From: a plasmid
Sequence record: NZ_CP143948.1
Length of the DNA stretch: 64,000 nucleotides
Direction: 5' to 3' (one strand)
Positions 66 to 48,063 of this stretch are shown piece by piece; position 1 is the stretch's first letter; the number at the start of each line of letters is the position of its first letter. The notes under the pieces are model-generated. The model was not told the origin of the DNA, searched no databases, and saw only the letters and a program-made list of their open reading frames with translations. Position numbers and translations under genes: made by a program.

Positions 66-336
66 GGCGTAAGACACGGACATGCCACCAACCGCAAGGG
101 GCTCTCAATACGCTAACGCTATGCTGTCAAGAGGCTGTACGAATTATGCCTATATGGTTTTCTATGCTCGACGAAACCGGCTTTTATGCGCCGTCCATGG
201 CGCATAACACCTTGCCCTGCCGTCCATGGCAGGACATTCCTGGGTTCCATGTGCATAATTCTACAGACTCTAAACAGCTCCGCTAGTCGCTTATTGAGAG
301 CCCCTTGCGGTTGGTGGCATGTCCGCATCTTACGCC
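66..336 (+). repeat. Structured repeat element, copy A. Terminal stem 77-110/292-325 is a perfect 34 bp and extends to 66/336 across a 2x2 internal loop; it encloses a conserved ~180-nt core
   Basis: The arms are exact reverse complements. The core (111-291) matches the cores at 42502-42675 and 47843-48017 and carries the gcgcc-gtccat-ggcgc and cctgcc-gtccat-ggcagg hairpins. The tracked ORFs 14..286, 119..328 and 305..625 sit inside or across it and are treated as spurious. Confidence 0.8.
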
Positions 337-427
337 CCTTACTTTATTGGTAACAATTCAGTACTTTGTGGTAAAAATAAAAAGAGCCGGTAAGTATAAT
401 AAATATACTTATCGGCTCCTAACCATC

Positions 428-42405: not shown

Positions 42406-42455
42406 ATTATACCAAATATATGCTGATTACGCTATATTTTTCTATAAAATTACGG

Positions 42456-42721
42456 ACCGCAGGTCACCGCCTGCCGGGCAACGCACATACTCCCCGTAAG
42501 CTACGCTGCGCGGCTAAGATTCTGTACGAAATTATGCTTACAGTCTTTCTATGCTTGACGAAACCGGCTTTTATGCGCCGTCCATGGCGCATAACGCCTT
42601 GCCCAGCCGTCCATGGCTGGGCATTTCTGTGTTTCATGGCATAATTTCTACAGTATCTAAGCCGCTTCGCTATTCGCTTACGGGGAGTATGTGCGTTGCC
42701 CGGCAGGCGGTGACCTGCGGT
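42456..42721 (+). repeat. Structured repeat element, copy B: a perfect 45-46-bp terminal stem (42457-42501/42676-42720) around the conserved core
   Basis: The arms are exact reverse complements, and the core aligns with copies A and C. Confidence 0.8.
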
Positions 42722-42749
42722 ACTTACTCTTTGCTAAAACTCAGGTACT

Positions 42750-47798: not shown

Positions 47799-48063
47799 TG
47801 CAAGTCCCGGCTGCCCGACCGGCCACACAGCTTCCCCGCGTGCTACGCTGCGCTACTAAGATACTGTACGGAATTATGCTTGAAGGGCTTCTATGCCTGA
47901 CGAAACCGTCGAAACGCGCCGTCCGTGGCGCGGTTCTCCTCGCCCCTGCGTCCATGCAGGAGCGTTTCTGTGTTTCATGGCATAATTTCTACAGTATCTA
48001 AGAAGCTTCGCTATTCGCACGCGGGGGAAGCTGTGTGTGCCGGTCGGGCAGCCGGGGCTTGCA
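47799..48063 (+). repeat. Structured repeat element, copy C: a ~44-bp terminal stem (47800-47842/48018-48062, one wobble and two bulges) around the conserved core
   Basis: Arms are complementary; the core aligns with copies A and B. Confidence 0.8.

Follow-up and report, generated by a model that had tools for sequence, protein, structure and literature searches.

Introduction

Weinberg et al. (2010, Genome Biol 11:R31) described TwoAYGGAY RNA (Rfam family RF01731), a structured RNA motif, from metagenomes of the human gut and from Clostridiales and gamma-Proteobacteria. Its discoverers noted that the P1 closing stem "is often very large" (Weinberg et al. 2010, supplement) and already remarked on a damaged or missing arm at some loci. 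Gardner and Eldai, in the RMfam paper (2015; PMC4333381), remarked on the poorly conserved external stem; they found that two loops fit the CsrA-binding motif, and a CsrA-binding small RNA (sRNA) of Clostridia was proposed. A literature search for a later functional study of TwoAYGGAY turned up none. Here, we report on three members of this family in a 64,000-nucleotide stretch of sequence record NZ_CP143948.1 (hereafter, the window). An initial annotation of this stretch, made from the sequence alone, had described three copies of an element with long, copy-specific terminal inverted repeats.

The three elements are very probably paralogous chromosomal TwoAYGGAY small-RNA genes of Agathobacter rectalis, encoded on the minus strand and equipped with a fast-evolving closing helix, and not a new mobile element. 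They share with the published RNA the two AYGGAY-loop hairpins, the gut Clostridiales host, the very large closing stem and a full-length match to the model. Beyond the published description, the closing helix in this Lachnospiraceae subgroup reaches 45-52 bp past the 168-position Rfam model, carries a conserved basal module and acts as a recombining inverted repeat in natural populations. The RNA family, its large closing stem and its proposed CsrA function are already known. What is added here, useful but incremental, is a fuller anatomy of the element and the finding that natural populations are polymorphic for its deletion, inversion and conversion.

Results

We scanned the window against Rfam 15 at gathering thresholds. 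This analysis returned four matches, one to a tRNA and three to full-length RF01731. The latter scored 137-159 bits compared to a gathering score of 43, covered model positions 1-168 of 168 and were all located on the minus strand. The initial annotation had named a match to a known Rfam family as a finding that would refute it, and the window contains three such matches. Its suggestion of a structured noncoding RNA with selection on a long helix agrees with these matches, but this RNA has been catalogued since 2010 and is therefore not new. The proteins flanking copies B and C carry the source names Agathobacter or Agathobacter rectalis, which fits the published taxonomic range of TwoAYGGAY.

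Reading of the sequence and alignment confirmed three co-oriented copies, at 66-336 (copy A), 42456-42721 (copy B) and 47799-48063 (copy C). Each element is about 265 nt long and consists of a conserved core of about 170 nt between long inverted-repeat arms. Across the aligned stretches of about 320 nt, flanks included, the mean column identity among the three copies was 78%. All elements, cores and loops given below lie on the minus strand, and the low-coordinate arm of each copy is the 3' arm of the RNA.

Copy A, delimited by arm pairing and the RF01731 core, extends from 66 to 336. Its core (116-285) matches RF01731 over its full length (model positions 1-168, 137.3 bits), with AUGGAC loops at 193-198 and 222-227. 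The 3' arm (66-110) is the reverse complement of the 5' arm (292-336) with 95.6% identity over 45 nt; 43 of the 45 positions are complementary, both exceptions being U.G or G.U wobbles on the minus strand, and the pairing comprises a perfect run of 34 bp plus a 9-bp extension that spans the two wobbles. Copy B occupies 42450-42727 when a basal extension outside the perfect arms (5'-GUAAGUA.../...UCCGUAA-3') is included. Its core lies at 42503-42672 (159.2 bits), its AUGGAC loops lie at 42580-42585 and 42609-42614, and its 3' arm (42456-42501) is the exact reverse complement of its 5' arm (42676-42721), with Watson-Crick pairs at 46 of 46 positions. In copy C (47799-48063), the core (47845-48013, 148.6 bits) carries an ACGGAC loop at 47921-47926 and an AUGGAC loop at 47950-47955, which brings the loops of the three copies to five AUGGAC and one ACGGAC. 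The 3' arm of copy C (47800-47843) pairs with its 5' arm (48017-48062) except for one C.A mismatch and two one-base bulges. The arms, reported at first to be exact within each copy, are so in copy B but not in copies A and C.

The minimum free energy fold of copy B is a single rod of -190.8 kcal/mol (z = -19 compared to dinucleotide shuffles), and the opposite strand folds nearly equally well (-185.8 kcal/mol). Each RNA is a rod of about 270 nt. The apex of the rod is a three-way junction with two hairpins, whose hexaloops (C-A-Y-G-G-A-Y-G) are 29-30 nt apart. Beneath the apex lie the conserved helices of the Rfam model and then a conserved internal loop (GAAUAGCGAA / GCAGCGUA), and a closing helix of 45-52 bp from the 5' and 3' arms makes up the base.

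Compared between copies, the arm pairs A-B and A-C were no more similar than shuffled sequence, and B-C was borderline (p~0.05). Taken pairwise, the arms are therefore as unrelated as had been claimed, and the canonical conserved terminal inverted repeats of miniature inverted-repeat transposable elements (MITEs) or insertion sequences were not found among copies A, B and C; a family profile built from 45 loci does, however, show recurring short sub-motifs. The rule that ordinary paralogous RNAs keep similar stems, on which the annotation had relied, is unsafe, as sequence similarity can vanish altogether from helices in which pairing is the sole constraint. Within the window, no arm sequence of A, B or C had a second occurrence beyond chance matches of 9-12 nt, and a role of the arms as guides or antisense RNAs was rejected on this basis. 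As noted earlier, the copies contain no credible open reading frame (ORF); the ORFs that cross them are not credible either, with one-base arm indels between strains.

To assess the core, we dereplicated 44 cores at 93% identity and counted pairs in the RNAalifold consensus. The consensus helices contained 1229 Watson-Crick, 48 G.U and 7 A.C pairs. Many of the pairs covary, for example CG/GC at 29:15 and UA/CG/AU at 15:15:9. Since G.U turns into A.C on the opposite strand, the 48:7 asymmetry reflects selection on a transcript of the minus strand, which is the strand of the Rfam match. Moreover, 43 of the 44 cores contained exactly two matches to CANGGANG, 29-30 nt from each other, compared to zero on the opposite strand. 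The core is a strand-specific structured RNA. Both the RF01731 matches and the pair counts place the RNA on the strand opposite to the one quoted originally.

The wider family was sampled by a reference-genome scan and a metagenome-contig scan, which gave 275 sequences including the window (compared sequences are cited by L numbers). The core pattern employed on the reference genomes was too degenerate, with 120 matches that were mostly due to chance in GC-rich genomes, and a tighter pattern was used on the metagenomes. An nhmmer profile made from the three cores yielded 151 full-length cores, 142 of which had a 100-nt flank on each side, and arm pairing was counted by pairwise alignment of the 5' and 3' flanks. 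The 142 elements represented 51 arm classes. Nearly all pair across 40-57 aligned positions, beginning 1-13 nt off the core, and an arm is damaged or absent at a few loci. The inner 40 columns of the arms in 45 loci contained 1586 Watson-Crick pairs, 65 G.U, 37 A.C, 68 other mismatches and 37 gaps, so that the arms, of 40-55 bp, are about 88% Watson-Crick in these distinct gut Lachnospiraceae loci. Among the arms, G.U exceeded A.C (65:37, p = 0.007). The longest unbroken Watson-Crick run had a median of about 18 bp, and the 46/46 pairing of copy B is unusual. Pairing in the arm RNA matters, less strictly than in the core.

A core-anchored profile of the 45 loci showed that the inner nucleotides of the arms, about 12, are semi-conserved (cTCTCg.g.GAGC) and are followed by a conserved internal loop, GAATAGCGAAGC. 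Close to the arm base, CGTAAG recurs (by eye). Directly 5' of the long helix, a strand-specific flank motif, CCACARCGTAAGG, was present in 16 of the 45 distinct loci; in 2 loci only was it placed as for a flipped core. The semi-conserved inner nucleotides, the basal CGTAAG and CCACARCGTAAGG together indicate that the arms belong to the conserved architecture, of which the middle 25-30 positions are free to vary. CCACARCGTAAGG could be part of a promoter, a transcript start or a processing site. Examples are found in L173, L262, L180 and L160, and the window has degenerate versions (337-350 and 42722-42735, minus strand). The motif is immediately preceded by a short AT-rich patch, and CCACAA is also present 3' of the 3' arm in three or four loci. 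Some elements occur as head-to-head pairs, about 110-250 nt from core to core with nearly abutting arms (L074:2701-3292; L248:10257-10709; L219).

Orthologous loci were retrieved by exact-protein look-ups with the genes beside each copy, and each locus was represented by ten A. rectalis contigs. The strains carried the same arms at the same locus in the case of A, of B and of C, which shows that the arms are inherited and not regenerated. Nucleotide diversity was 0.034-0.071 in the arms and 0.004-0.025 in the 250-nt flanks; for the cores, it was 0.008-0.018 at loci A and C. The arms thus have 2-5 times the diversity of the flanks, a value that is an upper bound on the excess over neutral DNA because the flanks include coding sequence. 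L124 and L125 had a one-base insertion in the 5' arm that was matched by one in the 3' arm, and their arms also showed a double change from A-U to G-C and three additional wobbles; uncompensated arm mismatches were present in other alleles. These comparisons show that the arms are part of the element, and not captured target DNA, and that they are inherited at orthologous loci. They also show that the constraint on the arms concerns chiefly their pairing and is weaker than that on the core, and that the arms are the most polymorphic portion of each locus.

The variation of the B arms between strains clusters in a mid-helix stretch of about 10 nt, equivalent to 42690-42700 of the window (minus strand), and the remainder is almost invariant. 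In the 5' arm, this stretch has at least five haplotypes: CCGGGCAACG, CAAGGCATCG, CCGTGGTAGCG, CCGTGGCAACG and CAGGGCATCG.

Alleles without the element were found at all three loci. They represented five distinct deletions, with junctions at 4-5-nt direct repeats and differing arm remnants. At locus B, L122 had its junction at a shared GCAGG, where the base of the 5' arm met the final 26 nt of the 3' arm. At locus C, L131 and L139 retained the last 30 nt of the 3' arm (junction CTGT), and L137 retained the first 23 nt of the 5' arm and the last 7 nt of the 3' arm (junction CCGG); a G-to-A variant was common to the deleted L137 and the filled L140. At locus A, only the start of the 5' arm was left in L142 and L145 (junction GCCAC), and both arm bases were joined at TGCGG in L146. 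Five different scars reflect repeated loss of the long palindrome through slippage between short direct repeats; the alleles are not ancestral insertion sites. Deletion between short direct repeats is well known for long inverted repeats. The possibility, raised at first, that the arms are palindromes already present at empty sites does not agree with these orthologous strains, whose empty alleles are deletions with arm remnants and include no clean site. Insertion into a palindrome had been considered for L122, where the "empty" B allele looked like a short hairpin, and was ruled out by the two differing deletions at each of loci C and A. In a further A. rectalis strain (L126:500-2800), an IS110-family transposase gene is inserted in a GntR/FCD regulator gene; the same strain lacks the GGDEF gene as well as the B copy, and all that is left is the final ~10 nt at the base of the 3' arm.

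The comparison also revealed alleles in which the core was flipped between unchanged arms. Locus A had 4 such alleles among 16 (L148, L197, L261 and L170) and locus C had 2 among 11 (L135 and L246), a total of 6 of 27; no inverted core was seen among the 9 locus B alleles. Representative spans are L135:3765-4320 for locus C and L148:4262-4800 for locus A. The inverted form was present on at least three flank haplotypes, one of which differs from standard alleles by 2-3 bases in 546. One metagenome assembly accession (GCA_964261755.1) contained three forms of the C allele, each on a megabase contig of its own: L133 is standard, L135 inverted and L137 deleted. The L170 arms have a recombinant appearance, which makes spread through recombination and repeated inversion equally likely.

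Exchange between copies was observed as well. The B copy of L129 (L129:3392-3800) has B-type arms and outer core with a C-type centre of about 85 nt that covers both AYGGAY hairpins and matches copy C fully or almost fully, and the B copy of L130 has the same C-type centre (by eye). A C-type centre within a B copy indicates gene conversion between copies 5 kb apart. Together, these alleles show that the arms, as long inverted repeats, cause direct-repeat deletions and core inversion, and that cores convert between copies. On a low-coverage metagenome contig (L152:2300-2700), sequence from upstream of the chemoreceptor gene (C locus) is joined to an A-type core and 3' arm, which represents either an inter-copy rearrangement or a chimeric assembly.

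The other genes of the window are of an ordinary chromosomal, housekeeping type and concern carbohydrate use, the metabolism of tRNA and of protein, sporulation and signalling. No transposase, recombinase or reverse-transcriptase domain was found in the 50 window ORFs scanned. Each window copy sits after a co-oriented gene. Copy A follows an NlpC/P60 gene (428-1699), and between the two lies a terminator-like hairpin with a U-run (377-420, minus strand, read by eye), so copy A is probably not a simple read-through product. Copy B lies 23 nt past the stop codon of a hemerythrin gene and copy C lies 14 nt past that of a TauE gene; they precede a GGDEF gene and a chemoreceptor gene, respectively. 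Upstream of the GGDEF gene, a TATAAT hexamer (42410-42405, minus strand) is located 5 nt before the first ATG (42399), and gene callers placed the start at an ATG eight codons further in. This spacing suggests a leaderless mRNA or a mis-set start of the GGDEF gene.

Discussion

A catalogued RNA family accounts for the elements of the window, and no new element type is revealed. Full-length model matches, covariation and strand asymmetry in the core and inheritance of the arms at orthologous loci carry this interpretation. Other explanations have been weighed against the same observations.

The behavior of the core between its arms could be read as that of a programmed inverton. In such a system, the arms would be recombination sites, and flipping of the core would set the transcribed strand and thereby switch a CsrA decoy or the expression of the downstream GGDEF and chemoreceptor genes. 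The element does resemble an inverton in that a segment of about 170 bp between inverted repeats is found in both orientations in natural populations, at loci A and C, on several flank haplotypes and, together with a deleted C allele, within one assembly accession; the position of copies B and C upstream of the GGDEF and chemoreceptor genes is also in its favor. The RecV-dependent switches of Clostridioides difficile have inverted repeats that are likewise dissimilar between loci. However, unlike RecV-type invertons, these elements are accompanied by no recombinase domain in the window ORFs scanned, and the inverted alleles carry substitutions of their own, as expected of stable lineages rather than of fast switching. 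The invertible segment here is a conserved RNA gene, not a promoter. Typical recombinase sites are much shorter than the 45-52-bp repeats of TwoAYGGAY, and a repeat length of 45-50 bp suffices for general recombination, or template switching during replication, to occur now and then. The recombinant-looking arms of L170 indicate that the inverted form may spread between strains instead of arising repeatedly, no B allele is inverted, and the 16 sense compared to 2 flipped cores at loci with CCACARCGTAAGG fit a preferred orientation with rare accidents. Part of the orientation calls rest on short-read assemblies. We therefore consider a programmed switch improbable. If it were true, inversion would be a heritable on/off switch of a CsrA decoy and, via CsrA, would affect motility, chemotaxis and cyclic di-GMP genes, among them the GGDEF and chemoreceptor genes beside copies B and C.

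It is also conceivable that the arms serve the neighboring genes, as a strand-symmetric terminator or 3'-end stabilizer after stop codons, with the core as a passenger or in a separate role. Of 33 distinct loci, 18 have a stop codon no more than 35 nt from the base of the helix, and gene starts are mostly 50-500 nt off. The helix forms equally on either strand, as the two folds of copy B illustrate, which would explain why inversions are tolerated, and AAUUUUAU directly follows copy B. On the other hand, copies A and C have no U-tract past the 3' arm, and the hairpin at 377-420 already provides copy A with a separate conventional terminator in front of it. Deletion alleles are common in natural strains, which argues that the helix is dispensable to the neighbors, and a terminator leaves the conserved, strand-specific core unexplained. 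As the main role of the element this is most doubtful; it could be a secondary role beside that of a TwoAYGGAY gene.

Mobility was the other possibility entertained in the initial annotation, in the form of target-captured palindromes. The elements would then be non-autonomous, like MITE or REP sequences, inserting near gene ends with arms built from the target or from pre-existing palindromes. They are indeed multi-copy, with three in the window and up to three per few kilobases at some loci, and show presence/absence polymorphism at all three window loci. Like REP/BIME, Correia, RUP and ERIC repeats, they are intergenic, hairpin-forming, often placed after stop codons and variably present between strains; the proximity of the arm base to stop codons is as often seen for REP-like elements. 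CCACAA on both sides of the element at a few loci, and one genomic array in which copies alternate with YhgA/Rpn-like "Transposase_31" genes, point in the same direction. However, all copies within the REP/BIME, Correia, RUP and ERIC families carry the same terminal repeats, and a target-site duplication or a cognate transposase is frequent there, whereas the arms of TwoAYGGAY are copy-specific, occur nowhere else in the window and have no consistent duplication of this kind: the longest word shared by the two flanks averaged 4.96 nt compared to 4.56 nt at mismatched loci. The empty alleles are five different internal deletions, two each at loci A and C, with differing arm fragments, and differing deletions at one locus make a single ancestral empty site impossible as their source. 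Neither transposase, recombinase nor reverse-transcriptase domains accompany the copies in the window ORFs scanned, and the conserved part is a structured RNA whose excess of G.U over A.C reflects selection on the transcript. The element is not demonstrably mobile, and we regard insertion as a very remote explanation.

The array belongs to a metagenomic Lachnospiraceae region (L214:1-3074, L185:3000-6831, L248:900-3800, L211:3700-6543 and L266:4000-5900). Its genes are paralogous, encode 300-390 amino acids and match Pfam Transposase_31 (YhgA/Rpn-like PD-(D/E)XK nuclease); the copies between them have similar arms, and the arrangement, with a unit of about 1.8 kb, resembles a tandem duplication. 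A general link to such genes, striking as it is there, was rejected: an Rpn-like gene lies within 2.5 kb at only 3 of the 33 loci, all closely related and apparently from this one array. A phage origin was likewise discarded, as five viral contigs matched a loose core pattern and none was a real TwoAYGGAY by nhmmer.

For a family of TwoAYGGAY genes, the divergence of the arms between paralogs may be the outcome of rapid substitution followed by compensation. Exchange between the two arms at the DNA level, by template switching or gene conversion, would aid this divergence and could restore near-perfect pairing, as in copy B, with the cores meanwhile kept similar by selection and by conversion between copies. 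The earlier suggestion that one arm is copied from the other survives in a weak form, in that the two arms do interact as DNA, in view of the matched indels, the core inversions and the hyperpolymorphic arms, but without support for a mobility mechanism.

What TwoAYGGAY RNA does may be sought in its loops. These fit the consensus of high-affinity CsrA/RsmE sites, and the 29-30 nt between the two C-A-N-G-G-A-N-G hexaloop hairpins could allow one CsrA dimer to bridge them. The two CANGGANG hairpins would bind one dimer and thereby titrate CsrA from its mRNA targets. That TwoAYGGAY RNA is such a CsrA decoy was proposed earlier by others, and judged from the sequence we regard it as the likeliest role, at about even odds. 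The predicted sites resemble those of CsrB and CsrC and of RsmX, RsmY and RsmZ, all of them sRNAs that titrate CsrA/RsmA, in having GGA in hairpin hexaloops that match CANGGANG and in occurring on several paralogs per genome. Unlike those RNAs, which have 5-22 sites, TwoAYGGAY has two high-quality ones; they share no sequence homology with it and are without its very long closing duplex. The CsrA of A. rectalis is functional in Bacillus subtilis, where it inhibited motility (PMC13443453).

By analogy, the long helix probably protects or defines the RNA ends, and may do so as a stem for RNase III-type processing or by blocking exonucleases. In rRNA precursors and in the B. subtilis scRNA precursor, which are cut by RNase III, a duplex of the 5' and 3' flanks also encloses a structured RNA, a likeness in architecture only. 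As in RNase III processing stems, the sequence of the duplex is free to vary while pairing is kept.

Several observations weigh against this account of a functional RNA with a selected helix. The source of the sense RNA is its weakest point. When the 55 nt upstream of CCACARCGTAAGG were aligned, they showed a short AT-rich patch and no -35/-10 pair, and a promoter consensus scan around copy B found sites no more numerous than in shuffles. There is no orientation preference relative to the abutting gene at the 18 loci with a nearby stop codon, where 6 elements are co-oriented and 12 convergent. A perfect RNA duplex of 46 bp is expected to be cut by RNase III, which a decoy would have to survive. 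The literature search turned up no follow-up on expression or CsrA binding of TwoAYGGAY. In the arms, the excess of G.U over A.C is far weaker than in the core, and about 6% of the arm positions are plain mismatches; this points to modest selection on the arms as RNA, and processes at the DNA level may count for as much. Furthermore, the 2-5-fold excess of arm diversity is overstated relative to neutral DNA, the flank baseline being partly coding.

TwoAYGGAY remains an orphan RNA of gut Firmicutes that are abundant and flagellated. In Firmicutes, the protein FliW is the known antagonist of CsrA. If TwoAYGGAY is a CsrA decoy, a proposal that dates from 2015, it would, according to the RMfam paper of that year and our literature search, be the first known CsrA antagonist in Firmicutes to consist of RNA. 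The long arms render the TwoAYGGAY gene genetically unstable in natural A. rectalis populations, and the design of probes, knock-outs or covariance models for this RNA needs to take this anatomy and instability into account.

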